DNA of 64,000 nucleotides, taken from positions 75,699 through 139,698 of the forward strand of contig JACQSC010000004.1 of the NCBI GenBank assembly GCA_016206155.1, given 5' to 3'. Shown piece by piece: positions 8,065-57,669 of the stretch. This DNA is from Candidatus Uhrbacteria bacterium. Lineage in GTDB: Bacteria; Patescibacteriota; Patescibacteriia; JACQRZ01. Within the stretch, counting starts at the first letter, position 1. Each line of letters starts with the position of its first letter. The position numbers and the translations under genes were made by a program. The notes under the pieces were generated by a model that saw only the letters and a program-made list of their open reading frames with translations, did not search any database and was not told where the DNA came from.

Positions 8065-8131
8065 GAAAAATGGTGTCAACTCTCATTTAACGTAAATGAG
8101 AATTGACACCATTTTTTGTGACACCATTTTC
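8065..8131. repeat. AAAATGGTGTCA-family nested palindrome in a divergent intergenic region
   Basis: GAAAAATGGTGTCAA...TTGACACCATTTTT with an inner palindrome TCTCATTTAACGTAAATGAGA and an extra half-copy TGTGACACCATTTTC. Confidence 0.55.
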
Positions 8132-9662: not shown

Positions 9663-9712
9663 AAACAATTTCCACCACTGCAAAAGATGAGATACATCGG
9701 GGGAAAAATGTG

Positions 9713-9766
9713 GAAAAATGGTGTCAAGTCCGAATTTTGTAAAATTCGGACTTGACACCATTTTTC
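9713..9766. terminator. AAAATGGTGTCA-family palindrome, positioned as the terminator of the 8280 gene
   Basis: GAAAAATGGTGTCAAGTCCGAATTTTGTAAAATTCGGACTTGACACCATTTTTC, followed by a partial extra arm. Confidence 0.55.
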
Positions 9767-9952
9767 AAATTCGGACTTGACATCATTTTCCCACAATATC
9801 AGAAACCATTGCGGTTTACAACAAAAGTCGGTATGATACGGGGAAAGCGGTATATGAGAGAATATACGTCAGCGGGAATTCGTGCATTAATAAAACGGGG
9901 TAGGATTTCACCACAATTGCGAAAAAGCGTCGACAACTTTTTAAAACATCCT

Positions 9953-11984: not shown

Positions 11985-12700
11985 ATCCAGCCCTTGGCTT
12001 GGAGTCCTTTCTGGGCCGCTGATACTTGAGCTTCTTGCTTGCTCGTTCCCTCACCTTTTGCAATCAATTCTTTCTCTAAAAATATGCCGACCGTAAAGCG
12101 CTTTGCATGGTCGGGTCCTGTTTCTTGCAGCACTTCGTAGCGAGGAGTAATTTTCATCTTTTCTTGCGCAAGCTCCTGAAATCGGCTCTTAGGATCAATG
12201 TCAAGCCCTTTTTCCAAGATCGTGGGCAGCTCTGGAAGGACAAAACGATGGATGAATTTCTCTGCGGTCTTGTATCCACGATCAAGATAGATCGCGCCAA
12301 TAAGCGCTTCAAATGCGTTTGTAACAATGTATTTCCGTGCCTTACTGCCCGCATCCTTGCCCTCACCGCGCGAAAGATAGAGCATTGGATCGAGGCCGAT
12401 TGATGACCCGATTTTACTCAGCATATCGCTGTTTACAAGGCTTGCGCGCCAGCTCGTCATCGATCCTTCCGGCGCATCAGGAAATGTGTGATAGAGATAA
12501 TCGGTTACAACCAACTCCAGCACCGCATCGCCCAAAAACTCCAGTCGTTCATTGTGGCCAAGGCGGAACGACGGATTCTCGTTGAGATACGAACGGTGTA
12601 CCACGGCCTGCCGAAGAAGGTCTTTATTCTTGAACCTAACTTTTATTTTCTTCTCAAGCGTTTCGAATTCTTTATCTTCCATAGTAAAACGAAGAATCAC
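11981..12700 (-). CDS. rnc: ribonuclease III
   Basis: ERLEFLGDAVLEL signature and a C-terminal dsRBD. Confidence 0.92.
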   Translation of the reverse strand: MILRFTMEDKEFETLEKKIKVRFKNKDLLRQAVVHRSYLNENPSFRLGHNERLEFLGDAVLELVVTDYLYHTFPDAPEGSMTSWRASLVNSDMLSKIGSSIGLDPMLYLSRGEGKDAGSKARKYIVTNAFEALIGAIYLDRGYKTAEKFIHRFVLPELPTILEKGLDIDPKSRFQELAQEKMKITPRYEVLQETGPDHAKRFTVGIFLEKELIAKGEGTSKQEAQVSAAQKGLQAKGWI

Positions 12701-12769
12701 GAATCATTAATTAAGAATCAGGGATTCTTTTTCTTAATTCTTGCTTCTTAATTCTTAATTCTTTTATGA

Positions 12770-13474: not shown

Positions 13475-13506
13475 ATAGGGTTTAGGGTTTAGTGTATAGG
13501 GAGTAG
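13475..13506. repeat. telomere-like TAGGGTTTAGGGTTTAG tract immediately upstream of the rpmF start
   Basis: AATAGGGTTTAGGGTTTAGTGTATAGGGAG; on the mRNA strand this reads CCCTAAACCCTAAACCCTATTCTTAT-ATG. Confidence 0.6.
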
Positions 13507-13595
13507 TCTAGCAAATTAGTGAATAAAGGCAAGCCCCGCCAGAAGTCTTATCGACCATTTACAGAGTTGATTGTTTATGCCACACTACTTTTAAC

Positions 13596-30370: not shown

Positions 30371-31360
30371 TCAAGCGACACGAAGTTCGGCAAGATTTTT
30401 TTCAAAATCCTCGCCCGGCAAAACGGTATATTCACGCGCTTCCCCAGAAAGATCGCGGAACGCAAGATGCTCGGCGTGCAACATGAGCCGTCCACCTTCG
30501 CGAAACGGCTTCGGCGCGATTTTGCCTCCTTTTTTTCGTGGCGTATAAATCATATCGCCAACAATCGGATTTCCTTTAGAAAAAAAATGCACGCGTATCT
30601 GATGGGTGCGTCCGGTCTCAGGCATGACGCGTACAAGCGAATATTTTTTAAGATACTCCTCTACGTGGTATCGAGTCAGCGCAGAGCGCGTACCGTGTGA
30701 ACCCGCCGCCTGTTTTGTATAGTTCGTTTTTGAGCGGCTGATAGGGACATCAATAGTGCCCTCTTTTGGTATCACGCGCCCAAATGTGACGATGCGATAG
30801 CGCTTTACGACCTGCCGAAGCTTGAACTGGCGGACAAGCGAATCAAAACTCTCGTTCGTGCGAGCGACAACCATGATCCCTGATGCATCCTTATCCAATC
30901 GGTGCACAATGCCTGGACGAAGCGGATCGTCACCGACTTTTCGTATCTCGGGATATTTTTCTAAAATCCAATCAGCAAGCGTGGGGGGCTCGCCTTCACC
31001 ATGGCTTCGGCGCAGCATCGCTTCGCTCTGATGCACAACCATGCCCGCTGGTTTGTCAAGAATAATATAGTCGGGAGTTTCTGTGATAATGCGCGGCGAG
31101 AAAATGGGGTCTGGTCCCGTTACCACTGCTTGATTCTTAATTCGTAATTCTTGATTATGTCCTGTGCCTGACCTCATTTCAATGCTGTCGCCCTCTTTGA
31201 GAAAATGATGAGGTGCAACCTTCCGTTCGTTTACCGTAATCACCCCCTCCTTCACCATCTTCTGAATCTGGCTGCGCGAATATTCCTGAAGTTTCTTGGT
31301 TAAAAATAGATCAAGACGTTTGCCGATCTCTTCATTTCTAATTCTTAATTCCTGATTCAT
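30371..31360 (-). CDS. RluA-family 23S rRNA pseudouridine synthase (RluD-like) with S4 domain
   Basis: S4 domain and an HRLDKDASGIMVVAR catalytic motif. The start was set at Met18 of the track ORF. Contains low-complexity NQELRI(R/K)N repeats encoded by AATTAAGAA-type DNA repeats. Confidence 0.8.
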   Translation of the reverse strand: MNQELRIRNEEIGKRLDLFLTKKLQEYSRSQIQKMVKEGVITVNERKVAPHHFLKEGDSIEMRSGTGHNQELRIKNQAVVTGPDPIFSPRIITETPDYIILDKPAGMVVHQSEAMLRRSHGEGEPPTLADWILEKYPEIRKVGDDPLRPGIVHRLDKDASGIMVVARTNESFDSLVRQFKLRQVVKRYRIVTFGRVIPKEGTIDVPISRSKTNYTKQAAGSHGTRSALTRYHVEEYLKKYSLVRVMPETGRTHQIRVHFFSKGNPIVGDMIYTPRKKGGKIAPKPFREGGRLMLHAEHLAFRDLSGEAREYTVLPGEDFEKNLAELRVA

Positions 31361-31376
31361 AATTCTTCGTGGAGAT

Positions 31377-33047
31377 TTATGATTGCGCACCGTTACAGCG
31401 CAACCAGGCACCTGCTTGACGCCTTGTCTTTATTCTCCCCGATAGCTGTTCTTCGCGCAACAGTTCTCGCAGTTCGCCGACGCGCGGACCCGGTTTAATG
31501 GCGCATATTCGCATAATCGCATCCCCGTCAAGCAGTGGCGGAGGAAGCGCGTGCTTGCGCAGGGTAAGGTTGTGCTGTTTTTCAAACGCGTGGCGCCGCT
31601 TCTTAAAAGCATAATATCCTTGAATGCCGACCCTCCCGCTTTCCTGAATCGAGGCAGACGAATCGCAAAAAACAAGACGCTGAAGCAGAGCTCCGCGGCG
31701 AGGATCATCATAAAAATACTTTTCAATCGTCCGGCTCCGCAGTTTATCAACGGTCGTCGTGAGAACAAGGAGGTGATTGCGCACGAGCCATGCAAGATCA
31801 TCGGCTGTTCCGTCAAACTCCGCGGCAGATGCCAAACGCAAACGATCTGCAACATGCCGCGCAATCTCCGCGCCTGCGCGATCGTGGCCATGCGTGCGGA
31901 TCCTGTCCGTCCCGTGCGTTTCTGGCGTTTGGAGCGTGGAGGGCTTGCCCGCATCATGAAACAACACCGCGAATGTAAGGAGCGCTGAATTGTTTTTCTC
32001 GCCAAACTCATTGGCGAATTTCTTACCCGCCAATACTGAGAGGGCCAGCCGCGTGTGCGTCCACACATCGCCCTCGCTGTGCCACCGCTTCTCCTGCGGG
32101 CATCCCTTCATTGTCAGCAATTCGGGAATGAGCAATTTGATAATGCCAAGATCGTCATACATATCTAACGCGCGGACAGGATCGGCAACAAACGTCTTTA
32201 CTATTTCCCTTGCGATGATCTCATAGGCAACAACACGCATGGTATTGCGATCTATTTTTTTTGTCAGCCGTTTTTCCGGAGCCATTTCTTTGTTGAGAAA
32301 TTTCGCCTTCTTCCTGATTACCTCAAGCGTCTCCTGCTCAATTTGAAATCCCAGTTGGCACGCAAAGCGCACTGCCCGGAGTATGCGCGAATAATCCTCG
32401 GCAAAGCGCGCCTGTGGTTTTCCAACCGTACGAATAATTTTTTTCTTTATGTCGGCAACCCCGCCGAACGGATCGATAACTTCCCTCGTTTTCAGATTTA
32501 GCGCAAGGGCATTGATGGTAAAGTCGCGCCGCGAAAGATCTTCTTCAATTGGAAGGCGGTGATCGGTCTTGATTTGAAAATCGCGATAGTGGCCGGTGCC
32601 GGCATCGGTGTGCTCGGTACGCGGAAGCGCAATATCGAAAACGGGGTCTGGCTCTGGTGGGGTCTGGCTCAATTTCGCGAAGCGAATTTGTGCCTGACCC
32701 CGTTCTGTGCCAGACCCCATTTTTGACATTTTTGGCAGAAACTTGAGAATGCCGAACTTTTTGCCGACCAAGCGCACGGTTCCATGTTTTTTGAAAAATC
32801 GCAAAAGCGCAGTAATCGGCACATTGCGTACGACAAAATCATAATCCTTTGTTGGCCGCGAGAGCAGCATATCGCGTACCGCACCGCCAACGAGAAATAC
32901 CTCTGCCAAAGGAAATTCCCTGCAAAGCGCTCTTACGAATCCAAACTGTGGATTACGTAATAGGGGCATTGTTTTTTTCTTTTGTGAAAAGGTTTTTTTC
33001 ATGCCATTGATGCCTTGACAAAAAGTTGCGTGATTAGGTTCATTCAT
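31377..33047 (-). CDS. cca: tRNA nucleotidyltransferase (CCA-adding enzyme) / poly(A) polymerase family with HD domain
   Basis: GGAVRD...DxD polymerase-beta head, RRDFTINAL and an HD motif LFHDAGK. Carries an in-frame insertion of a palindromic element (32643-32718). Confidence 0.75.
   Translation of the reverse strand: MNEPNHATFCQGINGMKKTFSQKKKTMPLLRNPQFGFVRALCREFPLAEVFLVGGAVRDMLLSRPTKDYDFVVRNVPITALLRFFKKHGTVRLVGKKFGILKFLPKMSKMGSGTERGQAQIRFAKLSQTPPEPDPVFDIALPRTEHTDAGTGHYRDFQIKTDHRLPIEEDLSRRDFTINALALNLKTREVIDPFGGVADIKKKIIRTVGKPQARFAEDYSRILRAVRFACQLGFQIEQETLEVIRKKAKFLNKEMAPEKRLTKKIDRNTMRVVAYEIIAREIVKTFVADPVRALDMYDDLGIIKLLIPELLTMKGCPQEKRWHSEGDVWTHTRLALSVLAGKKFANEFGEKNNSALLTFAVLFHDAGKPSTLQTPETHGTDRIRTHGHDRAGAEIARHVADRLRLASAAEFDGTADDLAWLVRNHLLVLTTTVDKLRSRTIEKYFYDDPRRGALLQRLVFCDSSASIQESGRVGIQGYYAFKKRRHAFEKQHNLTLRKHALPPPLLDGDAIMRICAIKPGPRVGELRELLREEQLSGRIKTRRQAGAWLRCNGAQS
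32643..32718. repeat. GGGGTCTGGCTCA...TGTGCCTGACCCC palindromic element inserted in-frame in the cca coding sequence
   Basis: Two left arms, a core palindrome AATTTCGCGAAGCGAATT, a right arm and an inverted left arm. Encodes KMGSGTERGQAQIRFAKLSQTPPEPDP. Confidence 0.65.
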
Positions 33048-36022: not shown

Positions 36023-36029
36023 GTGGGAA

Positions 36030-36058
36030 GGGTATAGGGTTTATGGTATAGGGTTTAG
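36030..36058. repeat. TAGGGTTTA-type tract immediately upstream of the 36022 start codon
   Basis: GGGTATAGGGTTTATGGTATAGGGTTTAG. Confidence 0.55.
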
Positions 36059-36084
36059 TAAGGATGCGCAATACCAAAAAAACA

Positions 36085-36111: not shown

Positions 36112-36117
36112 GATAAA

Positions 36118-36222
36118 CTGGCACTGACCTACTTTCCCGCAGAGCAGTATCATCGGCGCTGAAGTGCTTAACGACCGAGTTCGGGATGGGATCGGGTGTT
36201 TCCACTTCGCTAAAAGCACCAG
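36118..36222 (-). rRNA. rrf: 5S ribosomal RNA (ends +/-5 nt)
   Basis: CUGGUGCUUUUAGCGAAGUGGAAACACCCGAUCCCAUCCCGAACUCGGUCGUUAAGCACUUCAGCGCCGAUGAUACUGCUCUGCGGGAAAGUAGGUCAGUGCCAG matches the bacterial 5S consensus. Confidence 0.85.
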
Positions 36223-36603
36223 AGAGATAGACCCCATTATCATGGGGCGCATGTCTCTGGAGGGCTTCAGATTTTATCTGAAGCCCTGCATATACAAAAG
36301 TCCTTATTATGGTCGAGATATATCGATCTATTAGTACGGCTCGGCTCAAAATCTTGCGATCCTTACACCTGCCGCCTATCAACCTCGTAATCTCCGAGGA
36401 ATCTTATAACGAAACCTAATCTTGAAGACGGCTTCACGCTTAGATGCTTTCAGCGTTTATCCGTGCCGAACGTAGCTACCCAGCGGTGCTCTTGGTAGAA
36501 CAACTGGTACACTAGAGGTTCGTTCATTGAGGTCCTCTCGTACTATCAATGAGCCTTCTCAAGTTTCAACGCCCACGGTGGATAGGAGACCGAACTGTCT
36601 CAC

Positions 36604-36812
36604 GCATGTTAATCCTTCTGTTTCCAGATGGCATGGACTATATCTTCACCCTTCAAAAAAATTCGAAGGGGCCAACGTGTAGTCTCTACGGACCCCCCGA
36701 TGGATATCGGGGTTGCCTCGGTATTCCCTTTGCCTAATGCTTTAGGGTTCACCGATATAGTTGGTGCTAGAACGATATTACTATCGCCAAACGCCGTATC
36801 GCAGATTGCGAT
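36604..36812 (-). mobile_element. group I intron, ORF-less, at the 23S site equivalent to E. coli 2593 (GAACGUC^GUGAGACAG)
   Basis: Exon sequence resumes exactly across the gap. The intron carries GAGACUACACG and AAGAUAUAGUCC group I core elements. Confidence 0.65.
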
Positions 36813-36846
<34 letters not shown>

Positions 36847-36873
36847 TGGCGAACAGCCAAACCCTTGGGAGCT

Positions 36874-37620
36874 CATTTCTGTTTTCCCGCATTACTGCGG
36901 ATATCAGACTATACCTTCACCATGGCATACCATGTTACCATGGTTGCTATAGGTGCGAACCGTATGATAAAAATTAATTTTATCGCATGATAATCTCCAA
37001 AAAAACTATCAATTAGTCGTTACGGGAGCTTCATTCTTTGATCATTATCGCATAGTTCCTCCGTCGACTTTTGGATCGAACGTTGAACGACGATAATGTA
37101 TCCGCCAACCGCGCAATATCGTACAGATTTTTTTTAGAACGAATATCTCTCTGCAAAATTGATTGTGCGATCACAATCTGTTTTTTCTTGCAGCGAGAAT
37201 ATGGTGCAATCTGTTGAAGGAACATGATTATTTCTTTTTGATCTCTCGCGACCCATTCATAGGTAGTGCGATTTGATCTGATATAACCAATTCCTGTCAC
37301 TGGAACTAACCACTCAACATCGTGCTTATGATATTGGGTTATCTTTACCGTAATGCGCACTCGAAAACCAAAACGCTTTTCGGCGTGTTTTTCAAGTGTC
37401 GCCATGATGGCACCGTCGCCATCTAAAAAACCTGCGATATATGCTCGGTCGACTTGGGAAAGAAGCTTTCCCACGGTATTAACCTTCATATACTCTCATT
37501 ATACCTGGGACCTGCGAAGTTGCAAGCCACCCGTTATAATGGAACCATCGAAGGCCTTCACCGTTTTGGGCTCGTTTATTACTCCGACGTTTCCGTCGGA
37601 GAGAGAAGGTAAATGGTTTT
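36874..37620 (-). mobile_element. group I intron at about E. coli 2535 region (CCUGGGGGUGGAG^AGCUCCCAAGG) carrying a LAGLIDADG ORF
   Basis: Exon identity is interrupted for about 750 nt, and the interruption contains ORF 37031..37489. Confidence 0.55.
37031..37489 (-). CDS. LAGLIDADG homing endonuclease (intron-encoded)
   Basis: IAGFLDGDGA motif, 152 aa. Confidence 0.85.
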   Translation of the reverse strand: MKVNTVGKLLSQVDRAYIAGFLDGDGAIMATLEKHAEKRFGFRVRITVKITQYHKHDVEWLVPVTGIGYIRSNRTTYEWVARDQKEIIMFLQQIAPYSRCKKKQIVIAQSILQRDIRSKKNLYDIARLADTLSSFNVRSKSRRRNYAIMIKE

Positions 37621-37652
37621 CTCCACCCCCAGGATGCGATGAGCCGACATCG

Positions 37653-38447
37653 TACATTCTTCTATTATTACTAATAGTGTGGACTATATCTTCTTCCTGC
37701 TTTAATCCGTGCAGGAGATGGCGTATTAGCCCTTCTTACATATAAGGGCTCTGATCGTTTCCGATCAAGTCTCTACGGGGTCATTACTCAATTTTATACT
37801 TCATGGAAGGAATCACGAATTTCGCGACTATCCCCTTCAGCGTGCGCACGCTTTCTTTCATAAACCTCACTCGATAGTAGGTCTTATCTTTATTCAAGCG
37901 CGCGTTCAGTCCCATATCCTTCAAGAATGCCAGCAGGGAGCTCTGGTCTGTCGGGGTAAATTGTTGAGTGTTCAAATAGAAGTCTGAATCTCTACATTTA
38001 CTTCCGTCATCCATAAACCATACCGCCAAACTTAATGGATTGAGTGTAATTGTGGGTACAACTTTCTTCCCCTCTTTATAAAAGAGGTTATAGAACTTGG
38101 TAATCTCTGGATGCTGCCGTGTGGTGAAGCGATATGCGATTCTTGAATTATTTCCTCTCCTTATTTTAGGACCGCTGGTAGAAATATTTTTCAGTATACT
38201 GTATTTCCAGTCAACGTATTCCTTCTGTATATACGAGTGATTAATTTCAAGAAGTACGTTTCGCCTTCCTTTCACAATGCGAGCGTATCCATCGCCAAGC
38301 AATGTACCTACTATTACGGATTTCTGAACTTGAGTAAGACTTCCCACGATATTGTCCATATGAGTATAGTATACCATATGGAGTTCATCGTTATAAGCCA
38401 TATTTTTGGTATGACATTACTGTCATAGCACCCCGATTTCGTCGTTA
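37653..38447 (-). mobile_element. group I intron at about E. coli 2500 (GGCACCU^CGAUGUCGG) carrying a LAGLIDADG ORF
   Basis: Exon breaks bracket ORF 37784..38401. Confidence 0.6.
37784..38401 (-). CDS. LAGLIDADG homing endonuclease, double-motif
   Basis: VGTLLGDGY and LAVWFMDDGS motifs, 205 aa. Confidence 0.85.
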   Translation of the reverse strand: MAYNDELHMVYYTHMDNIVGSLTQVQKSVIVGTLLGDGYARIVKGRRNVLLEINHSYIQKEYVDWKYSILKNISTSGPKIRRGNNSRIAYRFTTRQHPEITKFYNLFYKEGKKVVPTITLNPLSLAVWFMDDGSKCRDSDFYLNTQQFTPTDQSSLLAFLKDMGLNARLNKDKTYYRVRFMKESVRTLKGIVAKFVIPSMKYKIE

Positions 38448-38496
38448 AGGTGCCGAACCTTGCCGTCGCTGTGGACGCTTGGGCAAGACTAGCCTG

Positions 38497-39351
38497 TTCG
38501 TATTTTTTCTCTTATTCCTAAGAGTACTGACTATATCTTCATCCTCACATCACTCATGTGAGGAGTACGGCGTATTGGCCCGATATACTTCGGGCCCTCG
38601 TCCATAATGGACTTCAGTCGATACGGGGTTCTTCATCGATTTTATATCGCATACTTTGTATCATATGCGGAGCGATAATAGTACTAAGTTTTTTTGTTTC
38701 TGCTACAGAAAATTTGAGATTCATTGATCCATTTTTCTTCTTTTCGAGTTTCGGATGAAGGTCAAAATTTTCTTGAATCGCCCGTAAGAGTCGCCGCGTA
38801 TCGCGATCAGTATGTTTTGAGAGATAGATATACGCGGTCTTGTCGCGTTTATAATAATATCCATCATCCATATACCATACCGCCAATACAAGCGAATCTT
38901 TTAACAATCGACTTATACTTTCTGGAATCTGCTTTGCATGATCCTGATAAAAGATCATCCGCAGCTTTCCAAATTCTGACGATGAGTGTGATTGGCATCG
39001 AATAGAATAATAGAATTTTTTCCATGTTGGATGAAAGCGCGTGAGGATGCTCGGCTTTTGCATAAACCGACGCAACTCAGAAACCTTCCAAAGAAGGTAA
39101 TCCTTTTGCTGAAGCGAATGCTCCAGTCGAAGGCGCGCACTCTTTGTGCCAACACGTTGAATAAATCCATCACCCAGTACACATCCAATCACTATGTTTC
39201 GTTCACGTTGTGTCATAGTAGTTCTTGACAACGATGAAGAACTTCCCTCGGTATTACCCGTCCGATTGTCATCGGGTTTGGGCTTCACCGATATCAGCCG
39301 TTTTCGTGATCGAGCGTTGCCGCTCGATCGGGACAACAACCCTTTAAGGGT
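38497..39351 (-). mobile_element. group I intron at the E. coli 2449-equivalent site (GGGGAUA^CAGGCU, the I-SceI/omega site) carrying a LAGLIDADG ORF
   Basis: Exon breaks bracket ORF 38614..39216. Confidence 0.6.
38614..39216 (-). CDS. LAGLIDADG homing endonuclease, double-motif
   Basis: IGCVLGDGF and LAVWYMDDGY motifs. The start was set at the Met preceding the first motif; the track N-terminal extension lies in intron RNA. Confidence 0.8.
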   Translation of the reverse strand: MTQRERNIVIGCVLGDGFIQRVGTKSARLRLEHSLQQKDYLLWKVSELRRFMQKPSILTRFHPTWKKFYYSIRCQSHSSSEFGKLRMIFYQDHAKQIPESISRLLKDSLVLAVWYMDDGYYYKRDKTAYIYLSKHTDRDTRRLLRAIQENFDLHPKLEKKKNGSMNLKFSVAETKKLSTIIAPHMIQSMRYKIDEEPRID

Positions 39352-39540
39352 CTATCCCCGGAGTAGCTTTTATCCGTTGAGCTTCGACCATCCTATAATG
39401 GATCGTCGGATCACTAACTTCCGCTTTCGCGACTGCGCGACTTGTAGGTCTTGCAGTAAAGCTGGCTTTTGCGTTTGCACGTCTGCTTCCGTTTCCATCG
39501 GAAGTAAGCCAACCTTTGTAAACGCCTCCGTTACCTTTTA

Positions 39541-40499
39541 GGCATTGTGTTAATCTAACCCTTTAAGTTTATACAGCATGGCTTGATGTATGTATGGTCG
39601 CACGATTCGAGCAAAATCGTCAGCCGATTCGGCAAGAATCATGATCTGTAATCCATCTGTTTGCTTCCTCGCATGCGAGGAAAGCGCATAGCGCGATTTC
39701 AATGCATTCATCAATCGTTCGATGTCCTTTGCGTGAAAGGACTGTGTATTCAGGATTCGCGCTCTGTGATGTTTTGACTTTACCGATCCGTCATCCATAT
39801 ACCATACTGCGAGAGCAAGCGGAGTCAGCCATCGATGAATCAGTTTTGGCACTTTCTTCACTCCGTTTTTCTCATAGTACTGATGCGCATAGAAACGCAA
39901 TGCGCCATGACTGACGGTAGAGAACCCGTAGTTTACACTTCGGATTCCTTCACGTTTTTTTATTTTTTCTCTTGGGAGTGTCAGGATCCATTTTCGAAAT
40001 TCATCATAGAGCCAATCGACATATTCCTTTTGTTTGATCGAGTGTTCGATCTTCAAACGATATGTTCGACCGTTATTTTGCGTCTCGAGATGACCATCCC
40101 CCAACAGGAGCCCAAATAAAATTTCTTTTTGCCGTTTTGTCAGTGCCAATTGTTTCTTCGCGTCTTCAATAGTTCGTGAATACATACATCATGTATTTAG
40201 TTAGATCCTCAATCTGCGTCATAGGCGGTTGGTATGACACGTTTCTCCATGTTCATCGGAGTGATTGAAGTCTCAAGGTTTCCCTTGAGATCAGACTCTA
40301 TCATTCCGGTATATGCTACCGGACCGACGTAGAGTCGTTGAGGAGTCCCATTCTTCTTAGAAAACGGGTTCCCTGCTGATTGTCTGCCGACGTATGTCTT
40401 CTTCAAAACATTTTTACTAAGCAGTAGTTTTGAATTTTTGCAGATGTTCCAGCATATAGTCGGTTTTCCTTCGATTACTCGAAGGGCCCCATTGCGTTA
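39541..40499 (-). mobile_element. group I intron at about E. coli 2263 (GGUCGCCU^UAAAAGGUAACGGAGG) carrying a LAGLIDADG ORF
   Basis: Exon breaks bracket ORF 39550..40185. Shares CUAUAUGCUGGAA and CAAUCAGCAGGGAA core segments with the 1917-site intron. Confidence 0.55.
39550..40185 (-). CDS. LAGLIDADG homing endonuclease, double-motif
   Basis: FGLLLGDGH and LAVWYMDDGS motifs, 211 aa. Confidence 0.85.
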   Translation of the reverse strand: MYSRTIEDAKKQLALTKRQKEILFGLLLGDGHLETQNNGRTYRLKIEHSIKQKEYVDWLYDEFRKWILTLPREKIKKREGIRSVNYGFSTVSHGALRFYAHQYYEKNGVKKVPKLIHRWLTPLALAVWYMDDGSVKSKHHRARILNTQSFHAKDIERLMNALKSRYALSSHARKQTDGLQIMILAESADDFARIVRPYIHQAMLYKLKGLD

Positions 40500-40786
40500 A
40501 GGCGACCGCCCCAGTCAAACTACCCACCAGATACTGTCTCCCTTGCGGATAACGCAAGTAGATCAAGAATTACAAATGCACAAGGGTGGTGTCTCATTGT
40601 TCCCTTGCGGGTCCCACCTACACTGAACAGGTGCATCCATAATCCAATATCAAGTTGTAGTAAAGCTTCACGGGGTCTTTTCGTCCAGCCGTGGGAAAAG
40701 AGCATCTTCACTCCTCTTGCAATTTCGCCGGGTCCCTTGTTAAGACAGTTATTTAGTTGTTATGCCATTCGTGCAGGTCGGAACTC

Positions 40787-41518
40787 CACAGTTCATCATG
40801 TTGCCATAATGGCAGACTATACATTCATCTTCCTGTCATCCGTAGGAGACTCTCCATTGTATATCGCCTCGCTCCAAGACCATTCATCTGATAGGCGCGT
40901 GTGATGATTATTTTTAAACCATCGCTCGTTCTGTGTTGCCGCTTCAATACATTGGCACAGATTGATCGCCATGTCTCAAAGTCATGATACTTTGATGAGC
41001 GAAGGGGATACTGTTCGAAGTGTGGAATAATCTTTTCACAAAGATCGTTAATGTTTCGAACTTCATATTTGTATGTTCCGTCGTGGATATTGAATCGGAT
41101 TGTCCCGCATCCAAAGAAGTCTTTGAGGTCATCAAGAACCACTTTACTTCTTTGGTGCTGACTAATCGTGAAGCTTGGACGCGTTTCGACGCCAAGAAGA
41201 AATTTTTTCCGTATCGAAAATGATACGAGAAAACTTCCTTCACCATCAACAAACCCTGAAACATACCATGGATTGAGCTCCATAGATTGACTTATTTACT
41301 TAGGAAGAGTCGGCGTGTTACCTCTGCTCATTGCAGAAGTCTTCTCTTTCGAGGCAGTCGTTACGGGGTCAAGTCCGATTGACATCGGACCGACTTCCCA
41401 CGGTATTATCCATATATTATATCATAGTATGGACTTCACCGTTATGAGCCGATTTACATGTATCGCGTCACCACGATACTCGGGCAAGTTCTCTCCGACC
41501 AAGGAGGAACATGTGTTC
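40787..41518 (-). mobile_element. group I intron at the E. coli 1931-equivalent site (GUCGGGU^AGUUCCGACC) carrying a LAGLIDADG ORF
   Basis: The exon stops after GUCGGGU and resumes at GUUCCGACCUGCACGAAUGG. 235 nt of intron separate the exon end from the ORF ATG. Confidence 0.65.
40825..41283 (-). CDS. LAGLIDADG homing endonuclease, single-motif I-CreI-like
   Basis: YVSGFVDGEGSF motif, 152 aa. Confidence 0.85.
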   Translation of the reverse strand: MELNPWYVSGFVDGEGSFLVSFSIRKKFLLGVETRPSFTISQHQRSKVVLDDLKDFFGCGTIRFNIHDGTYKYEVRNINDLCEKIIPHFEQYPLRSSKYHDFETWRSICANVLKRQHRTSDGLKIIITRAYQMNGLGARRYTMESLLRMTGR

Positions 41519-41539
41519 ACCCGACAAGGAATTTCGCTA

Positions 41540-41797
41540 GCCGCTTCCTTTGTGCGACGAACTCTCTCTTCACCCATTTATACTATCATTATAGCATAAA
41601 TGGGGCACGGCGTAGAGTTTCTGGAGGGTCCGATTGACGTCGGACTTCCCTGCTGATTGCCCAAGGCATTTGGGTTTCCAGCATATAGCCATGTTTTGAC
41701 CATTTCCATATTACTATGGAATGAGGCAGCTTTTTCTATTTACCCATTCACTATAACGGTCCCAGTCCTTCTCGATTCCACCATTGTGAAATCGAGA
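41540..41797 (-). mobile_element. group I intron, ORF-less, at the E. coli 1917-equivalent site (GGUCCUAAGGU^AGCGAAAUUCC)
   Basis: About 255 nt separate perfectly conserved exon flanks; no ORF inside. Confidence 0.6.
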
Positions 41798-43570
41798 ACC
41801 TTAGGACCCTTATAGTTAGGGCCGGCGTTCATCAGCGCTTCAGTTCAAAGCATTCCAGATAAATCCAGTCAACTTCTCCCTTTAACGTTCTGACACTGGC
41901 CAGGCATCAGCCCCTATACATAGCCTTTCGGCTTAGCAGAGACCTATGTTTTTGGTAAACAGTCACTAAATAAACGTTAGCTGCGCCCGGCCTAAAGGCC
42001 GGGGAGGCATATCCCGAAGTTACGCCTAGCTTTTTTGCCGAGTTCCTAAACAAGGGTTCTCCCGTACACCTGAGTATACTCAACCCGTCCACCTGTGTCG
42101 GTTTGCGGTACGAGTGCTCACCAGTTAACTCGTGGGGTGCAGGAACTAATCCAGTATCGTTTGAGCGATATTGTTCTGTGTCCATATTCAAGGCGCGAGG
42201 AGCGACACGATGTAAATGCATCGTTAGCGATCTCGCAACACAGAATATGGCACAGAACAAATCGCCCGAAGGGAGACTAAAAAATGGCCGATTTTTTTGT
42301 TGCTCCTCCTCGAAGTACTACTCAGTACTCCTTTGTCGTCGCGCCTCGAAATCGTCTCATTTTTTAGCCTCTCAAGACAATGCTGGATTAGTTCCTGCAC
42401 CCCTGGGCTTTTCTAGGCTTCTCCGTCTCCCGGCTTGCAGAATATCGCTATTCCGCTCGATCCCATACCTTACGATATGGTCTGCGCGTATAACCAAAAC
42501 ACGCCCGGAACGTGGAAAAGCGTCCCCCATCGAAACTGATGAGCAGTTCAGGAATATTAACCTGATATCCATCGGCTACCCCTCATTAATCAAGGACTCA
42601 CCTTAGGATCGACTAACCCTGGGTCGATTTGCGTTGCCCAGGAATCCTTGGACTTTCGGTGTTGAAGGTTTTCACTTCAATTTTTGCTACTTATGCCAAC
42701 ATTCGCACTTCTGTACGCTCCACCATTTTTCACAAAACAGCTTCATCGCCTACAGAACGTTCCTCTACCGCCCAGGCCTAAAGGCCTGGGCCCATATCTT
42801 CGGTACCACGTTTGAGCCCCGATATATTTTCGGCGCGCGGCAACTGGACCAGTGAGCTATTACGCTTTCTTTAAATGATGGCTGCCTCTAAGCCAACATC
42901 CTGGTTGTATAAGTCGCGACACCACCTTTTACACTTAACGTGGATTTAGGGACCTTAGATGATGATCTGGGCTGTTCCCCTTTAGACGGACGGACCTTAG
43001 CGCCCATCGTCTGACTCCCGCTGTATAGCATTTCCAGTATTCGGAGTTTGGTTGGGGGCGGCAGGATTTCTCCACCCGACCCCATTCAGTGCTCTACCCC
43101 TGGATGCCACAACGAGGCTAGTCCAAAAACTATTTCGAGGAAAACAAGCTATTACCGAGTTCGATTGGAATTTCTCCCCTAACCTCAGCTCATCCCCATG
43201 CGTTGCACGACATGTGGGTTCGGGCCTCCTCCGACCTTTCGGACGGACTCACCCTGGCCAAGGCTAGCTCACCCGGTTTCGTGTCTTGTGCATGCTGCTT
43301 CTTGAGGGTGTAGGGTTCAGGGGTCAGGGTTTAGATTGCGGTGACCGCAACCCTCTACCCTTTACCCTAAACCCTTTACCCTCAAATGCGCCCCATTCAG
43401 ACTCGGTTTCCCTTCGCTTCCTCCGCTTCATGCGGATTAAACTTGCAACATACAGCAAACTCGTTGGCTCATTCTTCAATAGGAACGCCGTCACCCCCGG
43501 ATTACTCCGAAAGCTCCGACTCCTTGTAAGCACACGGTTTCAGATACTATTTCATCGGCCTCCCGGCCTG

Positions 43571-43610
<40 letters not shown>

Positions 43611-44637
43611 GTCAAAAGTGTTTAGCCTTACCAGATAGTCCTGGCGGATTCCCGCTCGCTTTCACGAGGCGCGCGGTACTTGGGAACACATACGACAGAT
43701 TGGAAGATTGTTTTTGCATACGGGGCTTTCACCCTCTTTGGCAGGCCTTCCCAGACCTTTCTCCTAACAATCCGCCGCTCTGCATGGTTGGATCAGCAAC
43801 CACATATATGCGTCCCGCTACCCCAAAAAAACCTATAGCCCGATCGCCTTCCCTCACAACTTGAAATCTTCCTTGCGGAAAAAACCTTATCATGAGTTAG
43901 AGTTTTCTTGGTTTTGGCTCTTCCCTTTTCGCTCGCCACTACTCGGGGAATAAACTCTTGTTCTCTTTTCCTCCGGCTACTGAGATGTTTCACTTCACCG
44001 GGTTGTCCCCCCGACGTACGTCGGGGTACCACGATCTTCCATCGTGGTGGGTTTCCCCATTCGGAAATCCTCGGATCACAGGTTGCTTGCCACCTTCCCG
44101 AGGCTTATCGCAGGCTGCTACGTCCTTCATCGTCTTTTGACGCCAAGGCATCCTCCGTGTGCCCTTAACTATATCTCGACCATAATCAAGACTTTTGCTC
44201 ATATCCGCCGCGCAAATACGGCAGTATGAACGTGTATACGTTTGAACTATGCTCTTTTCGTTTACTTTCTATTCAATTCAATTGTCAATGTGCGCTCTCT
44301 TTTTTAAGGAGAGTGGCGGGGGATTGAGCCTTTCTATCTCCCGTCACCATCCTCAAGCGTCAATTTTTTCTAAAGACAACAAAAAAACCGCCGGTAAGCG
44401 GTCTCATGAGGCGATTAGTCGTCTCGTTCAAGGCCCCTTACGTGTGCTTCTTTTTACTTTGTAGCAATCGAAACATTCGTTTTTAAGAGAAAATCGTTGA
44501 ACGAGACTGATGCGTCTCTCCTTGTTATTAAAACAAGTATTGCCATTATAGATGATAATAAAGGGATGTCAAGCCCCTATTTATAGGAAAAAATTTCCTC
44601 TGCTGTGCATGAAATGGGGATATTTTGGGGAAAAATA

Positions 44638-44869: not shown

Positions 44870-47578
44870 ATGATTGCAGATATCTCCTTTCTTGAGCGCC
44901 GCATAGAAGTGAAACAAAAACTGGCGCAAAAAAAATTCCGAGGGCAAAAACGCACCCCGGTTTATTCTCTGCTTGCCTTAATCGTTATGATTACCGGCAC
45001 GCTGGGAAGTTATTTGACACTTTCTTATGCCGCAACATCAATACGCCGCAGCCCGCTTGTGTTTCAGGGAAGGATTACTGACGCGAACTATGTTCCGATT
45101 GCTGATTCAACAACGCGGAGAATGGTCTTTCGCATCTATAACGCTGCAACTGCGGGAAATTGCCAATGGTCAACAGGAAACGCTGCTGACACGGCAGAAG
45201 CAACAAACTGCGCCATTGATATCACGCTCGCCGGAGACAACGCCGCGGAAGACAATGCTTCGGTTGCGACGACAATCACACGTGGCGTGTTTTCAGTGCC
45301 GATTGGAGACACTGGCTATCATGCGAATATGCGCGCGCTTCGCCTTGACTTTAACAACGCGGCAAACGAAGTATATTATATTGAGATAAGCGTCAAAAAT
45401 TCGAGCGGGGAGTATGAAACCCTTTCCCCGCGCATACGCATCGGATCGAGCGCGTATGCGTACAATGCGGATGAACTGGACGGAATCACGTCAGCGTCAT
45501 TCGCACAATTGGTCGGACAGGCAGGAGGACAAATACTTATCGGCGGAACAGCGACAACTGACGATTTGACATTGAGAACCACATCTGGAGCGGGCGAAAG
45601 CGGCGCTGACATGATTTTTCAGGTTGGAAACAATGGCGCGACAGAGGCGATGAGGATACTAAATGGCGGGAACATAGGCATAGGCGATACGTCGCCTGAT
45701 TCACTTCTGAATATTCAGTCTAGCGCGGCCGAGAATAATGGCATCATCGTTTCCCAAACAAATGCCGGGGATTATGATCCGTTCATACAATTTGAGCTTA
45801 CGGACGGCACTGCGTCGTATACCATGGGCATTGATGACAGCGTTGCTGGCGACCCATTCAAAATTTCAACAACCGCACTCGGGTCTGGAGATCTTCTTAC
45901 AATTGATTCAAGAATAAACACTTCCGGAGTTAGCGCATTTTCGTTTACCACTCCATTTCATACAGCAGGCATTACAAGCGTTTCAACGGCAGAATATACA
46001 ACGCTTACTGTCACGCCGCCCGTTATTCTGCTCTCAGGACAAACACAAGTAACATCGCAAATGGATTCAATCGTATTCAGCCAGCCAACCGTTTCAGACG
46101 CGCAAGCAATCACTGTAGATGATGCGGCGCTTCTCACGCTCCAAGGAGCGCCACTGGGCCAAACAGGAGTTACGATCAGTGATTCATACGCTCTAAAAAT
46201 AAACACCGCGACTGCCGGGGGAACCACTCGAACATATGGTCTGTATGTGGATGCGATGACAGGAGGCGTGGGTACGCATTATGCGGCCGCGTTTGCAAGC
46301 GGCAATGTCGGAATCGGCACGGCAACGCCAGGGCAAAAATTATCCGTTGCTGGAACTTTTGGTATTTTAGAAGGTGGGGCGTCACCAACTTATTATACCA
46401 TCTTCCAGGGTGGAGATCAGGCCGCGAACTTAACCTATACGCTCCCTTCAGCCGATGGAACGAACGGACAAGTCCTCGCTACAAATGGCGGCGGCACATT
46501 AAGTTGGACCACATCATCAGCTGGTTCTTCTTGGTCGCTTTTGGGCAATGCGTTTTCCGGAACAGAAAAATTGGGTTCAACGAACGATTACTCCGTTGTA
46601 ATGATCAACAACAATACCGATAGATTCCGCTTCACTACCAAAGGACAAATCGAGATATTAAGTTCAGCGGAATCTGTATTGATTGGCGAGGAAGCCGGGA
46701 AAAATCAAGACAACTCGGCAGGTAGGTATAATGTTTTCGTTGGACGCCAGGCCGGTCTTTCCAACACCACCGGCTCTGAGAATGTAGCAAGCGGATATCA
46801 AGCCCTTTATTCAAACACAACAGGCACTTATAACACGGCAATCGGACCTTACGCCCTTTTGTTAACCACTACTGGAACTAGAAACACGGCAAGCGGATTC
46901 GAGGCCCTTCGTGGTAACACCACAGGCTATGATAACACAGCAAACGGGTATGTAGCGCTTCGTTCCAACACCACAGGCTATCATAATGTCGCAAGCGGAC
47001 GCGGAGCGCTTTATTTAAACACCACGGGTTATCAGAATGTAGCAAACGGATTTGAAGCGCTTTATTCAAACACCACAGGCACTTATAACACAGCAAACGG
47101 ATATCAGGCGCTTTATTCAAACACCACAGGCACTTATAACACAGCAAACGGGATTAGCGCCCTTAGTGGCAACACCACTGGCAGCAATAACATCGCGATT
47201 GGCGTTGGCGCAGGCGATAACATTACCTCTGGTTCAAATAATATAATAATTGGTTTTAGTGTTGATGCGCCGGTTGCCACAAACAGCAACCAACTTTCCA
47301 TTGGCAACCTTATCTTTGCCACGGGCGGCTTTGGCACAGGAACTACTATTGGAAGCGGCAATGTCGGTATTGGCACGGCAACACCGCAAAGCACCCTCCA
47401 GGTAGATGGGGGATATATTCAGTTTGATTTTGTTACAGTCGCGCCCAATGCCGCAGATTGTGATGACGCAGCTGAAGCGGGACGTGTCATTGTTTTTGCA
47501 AATGGCGCAGGCGCCGCGCAACTCTATGTCTGTGATTCTGATGATGGCGATGGCAGCCCAGGCTGGGTCACGAAGTAA
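44870..47578 (+). CDS. large cell-surface protein with N-terminal membrane anchor and tandem NTTGxxNTAxG beta-helix repeats (tail-fibre/adhesin-like) and a GNVGIGTATP motif
   Basis: 902 aa with repeated (A)L(Y/R)SNTTG(T)YNTA(N)G units and a C-terminal GIGTATPQSTLQVDG segment typical of tail-fibre/adhesin stalks. Confidence 0.65.
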   Translation: MIADISFLERRIEVKQKLAQKKFRGQKRTPVYSLLALIVMITGTLGSYLTLSYAATSIRRSPLVFQGRITDANYVPIADSTTRRMVFRIYNAATAGNCQWSTGNAADTAEATNCAIDITLAGDNAAEDNASVATTITRGVFSVPIGDTGYHANMRALRLDFNNAANEVYYIEISVKNSSGEYETLSPRIRIGSSAYAYNADELDGITSASFAQLVGQAGGQILIGGTATTDDLTLRTTSGAGESGADMIFQVGNNGATEAMRILNGGNIGIGDTSPDSLLNIQSSAAENNGIIVSQTNAGDYDPFIQFELTDGTASYTMGIDDSVAGDPFKISTTALGSGDLLTIDSRINTSGVSAFSFTTPFHTAGITSVSTAEYTTLTVTPPVILLSGQTQVTSQMDSIVFSQPTVSDAQAITVDDAALLTLQGAPLGQTGVTISDSYALKINTATAGGTTRTYGLYVDAMTGGVGTHYAAAFASGNVGIGTATPGQKLSVAGTFGILEGGASPTYYTIFQGGDQAANLTYTLPSADGTNGQVLATNGGGTLSWTTSSAGSSWSLLGNAFSGTEKLGSTNDYSVVMINNNTDRFRFTTKGQIEILSSAESVLIGEEAGKNQDNSAGRYNVFVGRQAGLSNTTGSENVASGYQALYSNTTGTYNTAIGPYALLLTTTGTRNTASGFEALRGNTTGYDNTANGYVALRSNTTGYHNVASGRGALYLNTTGYQNVANGFEALYSNTTGTYNTANGYQALYSNTTGTYNTANGISALSGNTTGSNNIAIGVGAGDNITSGSNNIIIGFSVDAPVATNSNQLSIGNLIFATGGFGTGTTIGSGNVGIGTATPQSTLQVDGGYIQFDFVTVAPNAADCDDAAEAGRVIVFANGAGAAQLYVCDSDDGDGSPGWVTK

Positions 47579-51041: not shown

Positions 51042-51055
51042 TAGGGTATAGGGTT
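51042..51055. repeat. TAGGGTATAGGGTT tract 11 nt upstream of the tRNA-Trp 5' end
   Basis: ATAGGGTATAGGGTTGAG between the folD stop and tRNA-Trp. Confidence 0.45.
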
Positions 51056-51059
51056 GAGA

Positions 51060-51890
51060 TTATTTCGTCAAATTTTTTGCCGCCCTCAATACATTCTCCA
51101 TCAATACGGCGACCGTAAGCGGCCCAACGCCGCCGGGGACTGGTGTGATAGCCCGTGCCTTCCTTGACACCGACGCAAAGTCAACGTCTCCAACAACTTT
51201 TTTCCCATTCTTAGTAATCCCAACGTCAACGACTACCGCACCTTTTTTAACCATTGTGCCGGCTAAATATCCCGCTCGTCCCACTGCCGTGATTACAACA
51301 TCTGCCTCACGCGAAAGCTGCATGAGCCGTGCCGCGCGGCTATGCACGAGCGTCACAACCGCACCCTGATTAAGGCAGTGCGCGCTAATCTGCCGAGCAA
51401 AAAACCCGTCGCCAATGACGACGACATCTGATGTCTCAAGCGACTGACCTGTTGAGCGAATAAGCCTCAAGACCGCTTCTGGTGTCGGAGGGGGAAATGG
51501 CAGCGGCTTATTCAAAAAAAGTTTTGCAAGGTTGTCGGGATGAAAACAATCAATATCCTTTTCCGGTGCGATGTGATGAGCGACCTCATCAAGAGCAATA
51601 TGCGGCGGAAGAGGCACCTGAAGAATAATGCCGTGAATGTTCTTGTCCTTGGAAAGCGCATCGAGCGCGGCAATAACTTTTTTTTGTGATGCGTTTTTTG
51701 GAAGCTGCACTTTTTTAAAATAAAAACCAAGCTCATTCGCCATCTGCCCTTTTCGTCCAACATACAGCACCGAAGCGGGATCCTCACCGACCAGGACCGC
51801 GGCAAAACCCGGCCGTGCTTTTATTTTTTTTGCTCGCCGTTTAATATCATATTTTAATGTGTCGGCAATTTTTTTTCCGTCGATGACCAT
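51060..51890 (-). CDS. folD: bifunctional methylenetetrahydrofolate dehydrogenase/cyclohydrolase
   Basis: 276 aa with the FolD pattern (GIILQVPLP, VGVGPLTVAVLMENV). Confidence 0.88.
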   Translation of the reverse strand: MVIDGKKIADTLKYDIKRRAKKIKARPGFAAVLVGEDPASVLYVGRKGQMANELGFYFKKVQLPKNASQKKVIAALDALSKDKNIHGIILQVPLPPHIALDEVAHHIAPEKDIDCFHPDNLAKLFLNKPLPFPPPTPEAVLRLIRSTGQSLETSDVVVIGDGFFARQISAHCLNQGAVVTLVHSRAARLMQLSREADVVITAVGRAGYLAGTMVKKGAVVVDVGITKNGKKVVGDVDFASVSRKARAITPVPGGVGPLTVAVLMENVLRAAKNLTK

Positions 51891-57399: not shown

Positions 57400-57403
57400 A
57401 AAT

Positions 57404-57479
57404 TGGAGGCCACGACCGGAATCGAACCGGTGCGATAGCTGTTTTGCAGACAGCCGTGTTACCACTTCACCACGTGGCC
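57404..57479 (-). tRNA. tRNA-Cys, anticodon GCA, discriminator U73, CCA encoded
   Basis: Acceptor GGCCACG/CGTGGCC, anticodon loop CUGCAAA, T arm ACCGGTTCGATTCCGGT, 3' UCCA. Confidence 0.8.
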
Positions 57480-57524
57480 AGAATATTTCAAAAGTATATC
57501 ACCGCATGCAAAAAAAGAGAAACG

Positions 57525-57656
57525 TGGTCTGGCTCGCGTATGGGGTCTGGCTCAGTTTTTGTTACTGCGTATGGGGTCTGGCTCAGTTTTTGCTACTGCA
57601 AAATCTGTGCCTGACCCCGTTCCACCGTTCCCCGTTCCACATGCGTGCCTGACCCC
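57525..57656. repeat. intergenic array of GGTCTGGCTC / GCCTGACCCC element halves plus a CCGTTCC triplet
   Basis: Three left arms (two followed by AGTTTTTG(T/C)TACTGC), two right arms TGCCTGACCCC, and CCGTTCCACCGTTCCCCGTTCCAC. Confidence 0.65.
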
Positions 57657-57669
57657 TATTTTCTTTGTG

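Follow-up and report, generated by a model that had tools for sequence, protein, structure and literature searches.

An in-frame palindromic repeat in the CCA-adding enzyme gene of a Candidatus Uhrbacteria bacterium, with arms like the terminal repeats of RAYT-like transposase genes

We analysed a 64 kb stretch of DNA (the window) from Candidatus Uhrbacteria, a tiny groundwater bacterium of the candidate phyla radiation (CPR) with a reduced genome. The window contains the gene for the CCA-adding enzyme Cca, and within the part of this gene that encodes the head domain lies a 76-bp segment (32643-32718). The segment is a multi-copy, hairpin-forming element that has entered a permissive beta-hairpin loop without breaking the reading frame. 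We propose that it is probably a nested copy of a small non-autonomous REP/REPIN-like repeat whose arms are the terminal inverted repeats (TIRs) of RAYT-like ("TIRYT") Y1/HUH genes. Homologous proteins are given P numbers and fetched loci L numbers. The features at the locus are:

31377-33047, minus strand: open reading frame (ORF) of 556 codons for Cca, a class II CCA-adding tRNA nucleotidyltransferase with an HD domain; acts in tRNA maturation, essential
~32637-32724, plus strand: whole hairpin-forming element with its A-rich and T-rich flanks (AAAAC...ATTTTT), from the single-stranded DNA fold
32643-32654, plus strand: outer left arm GGGGTCTGGCTC, from the sequence
32659-32671, plus strand: inner left arm GGGGTCTGGCTCA, T-type, identical to the arm of the polA and intergenic copies
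32672-32688, plus strand: inner variable stem-loop ATTTCGCGAAGCGAATT, which pairs as (((((...)))))
32689-32701, plus strand: inner right arm TGTGCCTGACCCC; its reverse complement GGGGTCAGGCACA is the A-type arm, the type of the transposase-gene TIRs, which it matches
32706-32718, plus strand: outer right arm TGTGCCAGACCCC, a hybrid, with an exact complement of the left-arm 10-mer, from the sequence

The only long ORF across 32643-32718 is the minus-strand cca frame, which reads ...LPKMSKMGSGTERGQAQIRFAKLSQTPPEPDPVFDIALPRTE... at this place. Its product is 100% identical to the NCBI protein 'CCA tRNA nucleotidyltransferase [Candidatus Uhrbacteria bacterium]' from a 288-kb contig, and since that entry has 541 amino acids, the annotated start of Cca is probably M16. 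Pfam assigns residues 50-206 to PolyA_pol and residues 343-431 to HD. The insert falls inside PolyA_pol, the head domain, where 157 residues cover a profile of 126 positions; together with the translation of the ORF, this bears out a preliminary description of the locus, which had placed the insert in frame within the head domain. Across the element the translation is ...GKKFGILKF-LPKMSKMGSGTERGQAQIRFAKLSQTPPEPDPVF-DIALPRTE..., with KMGSGTERGQAQIRFAKLSQTPPEPDP as the element-encoded peptide.

Modelled with AlphaFold2 (27-sequence alignment, mean pLDDT 86, pTM 0.84), Cca has pLDDT below 50 at the N-terminus and in residues 109-131 alone. These residues are encoded by the element, and in the head-domain sheet they come after strand 100-105 and before strand 137-140. 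Alignments of Cca to solved class II enzymes are also interrupted at this position. As modelled, the insert occupies the tip of a beta-hairpin (the beta4-beta5 loop). The strand after the insert opens with an invariant Asp, D138, probably the third catalytic carboxylate of this class II enzyme.

Read directly, the plus strand of the element is GGGGTCTGGC-TC-TGGT-GGGGTCTGGCTCA-ATTTCGCGAAGCGAATT-TGTGCCTGACCCC-GTTC-TGTGCCAGACCCC. This is a nested palindrome: an outer pair of arms surrounds a complete inner unit (two left arms, an inner hairpin and two right arms). The preliminary description had seen here an expanded copy of a repeat, with two left arms, a core, a right arm and an inverted left arm, and the sequence agrees: the left arm reappears in the last arm as its exact reverse complement, the 10-mer GCCAGACCCC. 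Other details had to be revised. The arms are as described, but the hairpin stem continues into the AAAAC...ATTTTT flanks, so the element extends beyond 32643-32718. Also, the core AATTTCGCGAAGCGAATT had been called a perfect palindrome, but only TTCGCGAA is perfect, and in the 18-mer one T is left unpaired or mismatched.

As single-stranded DNA, the plus strand of the element folds with -32.7 kcal/mol, versus -11.1 ± 2.2 for shuffled sequences (z = -9.75), and the minus strand with -30.7 kcal/mol (z -8.24). The two arm types, GGGGTCTGGCTCA and GGGGTCAGGCACA (the reverse complement of the right arm), differ at 2 positions. These differences, together with a third mismatch just inside the arms, place T.T mismatches at every fourth base (A.A on the other strand). 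The hairpins of the Cca and polA copies, with z from -8 to -10 and regular single mismatches, are thus of the kind expected of REP-type repeats. With at most one mismatch, the arm 10-mer occurs 14 times in the window versus 2.2 expected (0 of 100 shuffles reach 14), and the 15-mer arms occur 14 and 12 times versus about 1 expected.

Three other copies are found in the window:

56445-56502, plus strand: simple one-hairpin copy, in frame in polA (54616-57465, minus strand), in the linker that joins the 5'-3' exonuclease domain to the 3'-5' exonuclease domain
31100-31179, plus strand: copy with a foreign core (a TTCTTAATTC-type repeat), in frame in the gene for an RluD-like pseudouridine synthase (30371-31411, minus strand), between the S4 and catalytic domains
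57524-57658, plus strand: intergenic composite copy with three left and two right arms, adjoining tRNA-Cys, from the sequence and its fold

The polA copy, GAGAAAATGGGGTCTGGCTCAATTTCC-GCAA-GGAATTTGTGCCTGACCCCATTTTCTC, folds with -25.1 kcal/mol (z -9.9), and the insert is absent from all 30 of the closest PolA homologues, including one at 74% identity. Compared at the nucleotide level, the Cca and polA loci have exact arms and 19 nt of identity. The polA copy encodes EKMGSGTNSLRKLSQTPFS, so the two inserts do have KMGSGT...LSQTP in common, as first noticed. The copy in the RluD-like gene is found at the same place in the orthologue from another Uhrbacteria metagenome-assembled genome (MAG), JACQWH01. 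Multi-arm arrays are found at 32643-32718 and at 57524-57658.

We also note that TTCTTAATTC-type repeats are present at 12689-12756, 31121-31152 and 31336-31370. One of them is the core of the copy in the RluD-like gene, where it encodes QELRIKNQ, and the composite of this core and the element is also present in the JACQWH01 orthologue (L017, 876-945). Such a core inside a copy of the element suggests that one repeat family may be nested in another.

The arms are translated in several ways. In the Cca copy, one arm is read as MGSGT and the next as RGQAQ, and likewise one is read as LSQTP and the next as EPDP. Depending on their orientation, copies encode ...GSGTNSLREIEPDPIF... or ...GSGSISxRNLCLTPF/...VPDP.... 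Because the same arms are used in different frames and in both orientations, an origin at the level of the peptide is ruled out. The earlier proposal that the peptides derive from the repeat and not from the host genes therefore holds, and insert-free orthologues exist as well. The window and 14 fetched loci make up 15 Uhrbacteria-type sequences, which contain 20 complete copies. Of these, 16 lie within frames that have no stop for at least 150 codons; both orientations and several frames are represented. Each arm is free of stops in two of its three frames, so insertions that leave an ORF open are easily obtained. We also considered that the insert might be bypassed in translation or excised, but this is unnecessary, as every intragenic copy keeps an open frame.

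The peptide GSGT...LSQTP/EPDP could instead be a protein module that is selected because it adds a function to Cca, PolA and RluD, for instance as an interaction motif. All three intragenic copies in the window are in genes for nucleic-acid enzymes and have the same orientation, and an excess of intragenic REPs has been reported in repair/replication and pseudouridine synthase genes (PMC3733652). However, the same DNA gives different peptides in other frames or on the other strand, intergenic copies exist, there are orthologues without the insert, and AlphaFold does not give the insert a confident structure. We consider a selected peptide extremely improbable.

To see how the Cca loop varies, we aligned 26 Cca homologues (48-74% identity) and also compared seven orthologues as DNA. 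Between GKKFGVLKF and DIALPRTE, P0009 and P0010 have only 3 residues, and the longest segments exceed 40. The multiple alignment thus contains orthologues with no insert (P0009 and P0010), and the loop of the Cca from the window is 31 residues longer than those of P0009 and P0010, rather than the ~27 residues that had been suggested. At the DNA level, the site is empty in L003 (AAAGATTAC). The same element is present in the same orientation in L001 (three arms), L002 (two arms) and the window (four arms). L116 has an R'-R form (GGGGTCAGGAAAGGGGTCTGTGCCTGACCCC) and L117 has a decayed copy. In two orthologues from Uhrbacteria (L118 and L119), the site holds unrelated inserts of 111-114 nt, which fold into long hairpins. 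Since orthologous sites are empty, differently built or filled by unrelated hairpins, the Cca loop is an insertion hotspot. Several families of palindromic repeats evidently target this loop or survive in it, and the varying numbers of arms at one site show that it keeps being remodelled.

Could a local process account for all of this? Replication slippage or hairpin-primed duplication might act within a variable loop, and the likeness to other loci would then reflect a bias in sequence. The loop is indeed hypervariable among orthologues, and as one, two, three or four arms are found at one site, some local process is needed. Slippage might explain the expansion of the element, but not its origin: loci that are not linked, and other phyla too, have identical arms of 13-19 nt, and such arms also flank transposase genes. 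This identity across loci and phyla refutes slippage as the sole explanation, and we view it as very improbable.

The element is better conserved than the genes that carry it. Between the window and JACQWH01, the Cca genes are 60.6% identical in nucleotides, but at the Cca site the core of the element is identical at 41 of 43 positions and the 3' arm and junction at 21 of 22 (~95% versus ~60% for the host gene). The RluD-like gene has 77% identity, versus ~93% for its copy of the element. The common 3' junction in Cca suggests that these copies may go back to one ancestral insertion. Conservation beyond that of the host gene requires gene conversion among copies, re-insertion into a remnant, or selection on the sequence or structure.

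If selection is responsible, then the element might be a functional nucleic-acid module (for mRNA stability, like a terminator, or as a protein-binding site) that is kept for its effect on expression. This would fit with the conservation at orthologous sites, with an inner stem that varies while its pairing is kept, with the A-run and T-run that frame the stem in Uhrbacteria as in a bidirectional intrinsic terminator, and with the intergenic copy, which comes after tRNA-Cys. However, a strong terminator within essential genes would be harmful. Copies are found in both orientations, at unrelated positions and in unrelated genes, and closely related orthologues lack the element. There is also no match to an Rfam family: a scan of the window with gathering thresholds gave no family where the element lies, and in three loci scanned by E-value there was only sub-threshold noise from miRNA hairpins. 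Gene conversion among copies, or recognition by a transposase, could equally explain the conservation, and we think that a role in expression is unlikely.

A bolder idea, which we regard as doubtful, is that the element is an actively maintained population of REPIN-like replicators that is common to Planctomycetota, Nitrospirales and the CPR Uhrbacteria. Copies at orthologous intragenic sites would then stay nearly invariant, despite saturated divergence of the host genes, via transposase-mediated gene conversion or selection on DNA or RNA structure. If so, Uhrbacteria might not need a resident transposase, as contacts with other bacteria could supply the element or service it. Odd insertions in CPR proteins would then have a general source in the repeated invasion of permissive loops, such as the beta-hairpin of Cca.

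To find the element in other genomes, we scanned one genome per GTDB species for the exact pattern GGTCTGGCTCA-N(5-35)-TGTGCCTGACC, in which the arms are fixed and the inner part is free. The module, GGGGTCTGGCTCA-[variable hairpin]-TGTGCCTGACCCC, was found in at least 111 stretches, and those among the matches listed are mostly from Planctomycetota, with others from Nitrospirales and a few from Uhrbacteria. Also among the matches listed, at least 13 stretches are in a closed Planctomycetota chromosome of 4.28 Mb (CP070790.1), and about 25 are in one Planctomycetaceae MAG with contigs of up to 1.3 Mb. The fetched loci contain 487 arms in 868 kb. We rejected the matches in Sulfitobacter (L006), Thermomicrobiales (L040), Anaerolineae (L079) and Chloroflexota (L115) as chance matches, as they have neither the GG/CC flanks nor the inner hairpin.

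The inner hairpin differs by lineage: it is ATTTCC-GCAA-GGAATT in Uhrbacteria, TTTTCT-TCCG-AGAAAA in Nitrospirales and TCCGCC-CAA-GGCGGA in Planctomycetaceae. Because the lineages pair in different registers, we gave up on a single consensus structure and folded the inner hairpins one by one, with shuffles. Of 74 distinct inner sequences among the matches listed, 90% form a hairpin of at least 3 bp, and the median z is -2.8 versus shuffles. In four species of Planctomycetota (L021, L035, L047 and L110), the RecQ gene has 1-3 in-frame copies of the module in corresponding places. They encode GEGVRHNFGELPPKLSQTP, KGSGSRSVPDP and LGSGTKELAGEGQAQ...EPDP, and they have compensatory changes in the inner stem (for example, CGGCGGCAGTTCGCCG versus CGCCGGCAGTTCGGCG). 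In Planctomycetota bin1449, the module is at the center of a palindromic unit of 105 bp.

Two contigs from CAZKXN01 (L023 and L111), a MAG that is labelled as Gammaproteobacteria, have an element of the Uhrbacteria type, with an AATTTCC...GGAATT inner stem and A/T-run flanks. Either these contigs are mis-binned or this is a further lineage with the element. The module had 0 matches among IMG/VR viral contigs, so there is no sign of a phage vector. When the arm sequences were used for a full-text search of the literature, the results were only noise from eukaryotic primers and miRNAs, and in the literature on palindromic insertions in CPR/Patescibacteria we found nothing specific.

Among the 2142 ORFs within 2.5 kb of 117 copies, clustering found no gene family that is regularly beside the hairpin. 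We arrived at the link to transposases by searching the fetched loci for inverted pairs of arms. In L055, from Planctomycetota, the ORF at 3690-4580 matches Y1_Tnp (PF01797, E = 1e-15) and the NCBIfam model for REP-associated tyrosine transposase (80.1 bits, with a cut-off of 80). The ORF is bracketed by a perfect 19-bp inverted repeat (AAAGGGGTCAGGCTACTTT / AAAGTAGCCTGACCCCTTT), and the second repeat overlaps its stop codon. This transposase has thousands of homologues in Planctomycetota and Nitrospira, under the names RayT or REP-associated tyrosine transposase. In L120, a homologue that was fetched independently of the repeat, AAAAGGGGTCAGGCTACTTTTT lies ~45 bp upstream of the start codon, and L065 is similar. 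These transposase genes also carry in-frame copies of the module after the catalytic domain (L055 4133-4345, L065 5306-5405 and L120 1106-1175).

We then scanned metagenome contigs with AAATGGGGTCWGGC-N70-100-YH[VI]..RGN, that is, a terminus of the Uhrbacteria type followed by the N-terminal motif. At least 120 loci were found, with G+C from 0.34 to 0.66. Among the matches listed, 121 of 122 arms are A-type, and the ORFs encode Y1_Tnp proteins of ~225 or ~310-330 amino acids, whose best NCBIfam match is REP-associated tyrosine transposase (the matching transposase profiles are PF01797 and NF047646). In 48 of the 60 complete ORFs among these matches, an inverted arm, GCCTGACCCC, is at or over the stop codon. 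In the class of ~320 amino acids (L238, L143 and ~60 other loci among the matches listed), the TGA stop codon is often part of this downstream inverted repeat, and the proteins have a C-terminal helix-turn-helix like DnaA_C (PF08299 at 28 bits, just below the cut-off).

RAYT-like Y1 genes ("TIRYT") have been reported to be flanked by inverted repeats with a common GGGGWSAS (PMC3733652), and the arm GGGGTCAG matches this published TIR motif. The arm AAATGGGGTCAGGC/GCCTGACCCCATTT flanks Y1 transposase genes, by comparison of the sequences. As the arms flank these genes in inverted orientation, we identify the arms of the element, which belongs to palindrome family 2 of the window, as the TIRs of a widespread RAYT-like transposase unit. 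RAYT-like Y1 (IS200-like) genes from Planctomycetota and from at least 120 metagenome contigs have GGGGTCAGGC as their terminal inverted repeat, and the hairpin module consists of two TIR arms joined by a short hairpin. Downstream of the RAYT-like gene in L065 (5617-5730) there are also two copies of a different, GTAG-tagged hairpin (GTAGGGACACGCTGCCGCGTGTCCCTAC), so classical GTAG REPs and the GGGGTCAGGC family coexist there.

Recognition of hairpins on single-stranded DNA by Y1 enzymes is established for the E. coli RAYT and for IS200/IS605 TnpA. We suggest that a Y1 transposase recognizes the imperfect hairpin of the element on single-stranded DNA, and that copies are made or moved in this way. 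Insertions into coding sequence would survive only if their length and frame keep the ORF open and if the added residues fall in a surface loop or a linker. On translation, the copy in Cca would yield a disordered loop of ~30 residues that has no designed function, and its extra arms might come from a second insertion into an earlier copy, or from recombination with one. All of this, from the mobility of the element to the translation of its insert and the consequences for Cca, we infer from the features above.

Several observations weigh against a REP-like repeat with RAYT-type termini. We searched all six-frame ORFs of the window and of all the loci with a hidden Markov model of 120 RAYT homologues, and there was no Y1 gene in the 64-kb window or in ~90 kb from 12 other Uhrbacteria loci (~150 kb of genomes of ~1 Mb). 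The model matched only L055, L065, L066 and one fragment, none of which are from Uhrbacteria. When the metagenome loci with transposases were compared to Uhrbacteria proteins, there were no close relatives, and none of the loci were Uhrbacteria-like. No target-site duplication or excision footprint could be defined. Most of the complete copies in Uhrbacteria are intragenic, unlike classical extragenic REPs. There is no GTAG/CGTC tag: the 5' flanks are CGG, TGG, AGG and others, and GTAG is sporadic (for example, in L108 and L073). TIR-type repeats likewise have no GTAG tag (PMC3733652). Finally, the element is much better conserved than its host gene, which would not be expected of simple neutral junk.

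A more conventional origin would be as a classical miniature inverted-repeat transposable element (MITE): a deletion derivative of a DDE insertion sequence, moved by double-stranded cut-and-paste, whose GGGGTCTGGC arms are TIRs bound by the transposase. Like MITEs, the element is small, is present in many copies and has terminal inverted repeats, and the 105-bp unit of bin1449 is flanked at both ends by T(A/T)A, which could be a target duplication. In Uhrbacteria, however, the copies have no direct-repeat target duplication; their AAAAT/ATTTT flanks are inverted and are part of the stem. The ORFs around the 117 copies include no recurrent DDE gene, and the only gene family that we found with matching termini is Y1/HUH. 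An element of ~42 bp would also be too short to be looped by a DDE transpososome. We think that a MITE of this kind is quite improbable.

Besides the element and the genes that carry it, the window contains other unusual features. The 23S rRNA gene (36323-44175, minus strand) is split by at least 3 group I introns (Rfam matches at 36614-36819, 40272-40514 and 41548-41798), and a 23S rRNA gene with three group I introns fits with a CPR organism. Between these introns are repeated ORF-like segments (direct repeats D8 and D9, 36.6-39.8 kb), which are probably homing-endonuclease genes. The 5S rRNA is at 36116-36223. At 4404-4479 there is a tRNA-Ile with the anticodon TAT (UAU), which is uncommon in bacteria.

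There are other repeats as well. The palindromes of "family 1" (1982-2035, 8066-8116 and 9709-9795; GAAAAATGGTGTCA...TGACACCATTTTTC) have termini that resemble those of family 2 (AAAATGG-GTC / GAC-CCATTTT), but their arms differ; they may belong to another Y1-type unit. Runs of TAGGGTTTAGGG-type heptamers, similar to the telomere-like TTTAGGG, are at 13476-13507, 22743-22788, 36028-36059, 43304-43335 and 51042-51073. An inverted repeat of 187 nt (83% complementary), with near-perfect terminator-like palindromes (AACAAAGCCCCGCGTGAAGCGGAGCTTTGTTTTTT), is found at 27758-27984 and 29564-29807. It brackets ~1.6-1.9 kb adjoining tRNA-Leu and could be an inverted duplication or another mobile unit. 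Lastly, seven tandem units of 51 bp (60-74% identical) at 46742-47243 are probably from a repeat-containing gene.

If our proposal is correct, then Rickettsia is joined by a second clear example of a bacterium with a reduced genome whose essential genes harbour palindromic selfish DNA in frame. Unlike the Rickettsia elements, the element is tied by sequence to a family of transposases, the RAYT-like Y1 enzymes with GGGGTCAGGC inverted repeats. The element should also help with annotation, as it explains loop insertions in proteins from CPR, Planctomycetota and Nitrospirales; the signature is GSGT/GQAQ...LSQTP/EPDP or GSGS...VPDP. The beta4-beta5 loop of Cca and the inter-domain linker of PolA would be naturally permissive sites for insertions.

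How does the element compare to known systems? The left arm also resembles the Tn3 terminal repeat (GGGGTCTGACGCTCA) and the 5' half of a tRNA, but we dropped both ideas, as arms of this size are too short and the link to transposases leads in another direction. MITEs fold into hairpins and occasionally form in-frame fusions (PMC10969869). The MITEs Correia/NEMIS, ERIC and RUP are, like our element, small non-autonomous hairpin repeats with TIRs, but they are 70-300 bp long and have target-site duplications and DDE-transposase partners, none of which we found for the element.

The IS200/IS605 elements have two different end hairpins and no terminal inverted repeats, and PATEs are short non-autonomous palindromic derivatives. 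What they share with our element is the Y1/HUH family and imperfect subterminal hairpins that are recognized on single-stranded DNA. In contrast to IS200/IS605, true inverted repeats enclose the gene here, which is also the arrangement of RAYT/TIRYT units.

The Rickettsia palindromic elements (RPEs; Ogata et al. 2000), going by the passages on them in two papers, are palindromic repeats that lie in frame in many unrelated housekeeping genes (PMC10969869, PMC3733652). Our element is similarly a palindromic selfish repeat in frame in unrelated genes of a bacterium with a reduced genome, and it is tolerated in loops and linkers. But RPEs are ~100-150 bp long, occur in Rickettsia and a few relatives, and have no identified transposase, while the element is 42-76 bp long and is linked to Y1 TIRs. 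Given its length and the phylum of its host, we treat it as an analogue of RPEs and not as a member.

The closest likeness is to the REP/REPIN-RAYT systems, including the TIRtron/TIRYT variant (Di Nocera et al. 2013; PMC3733652). One difference is that the arms of our element are nearly invariant across three phyla, while REP sequences are usually lineage-specific. Another is that the element consists of two TIR arms and a small variable hairpin. In both cases there are short imperfect palindromes with conserved mismatches, present in many copies and in dimers or clusters. In both, the repeat is inverted around a Y1/HUH gene (here in L055, L065, L120 and at least 120 metagenome loci). And intragenic REPs have been reported, notably in the genes for DNA polymerase I and pseudouridine synthase (PMC3733652), which is also where copies of our element are found.

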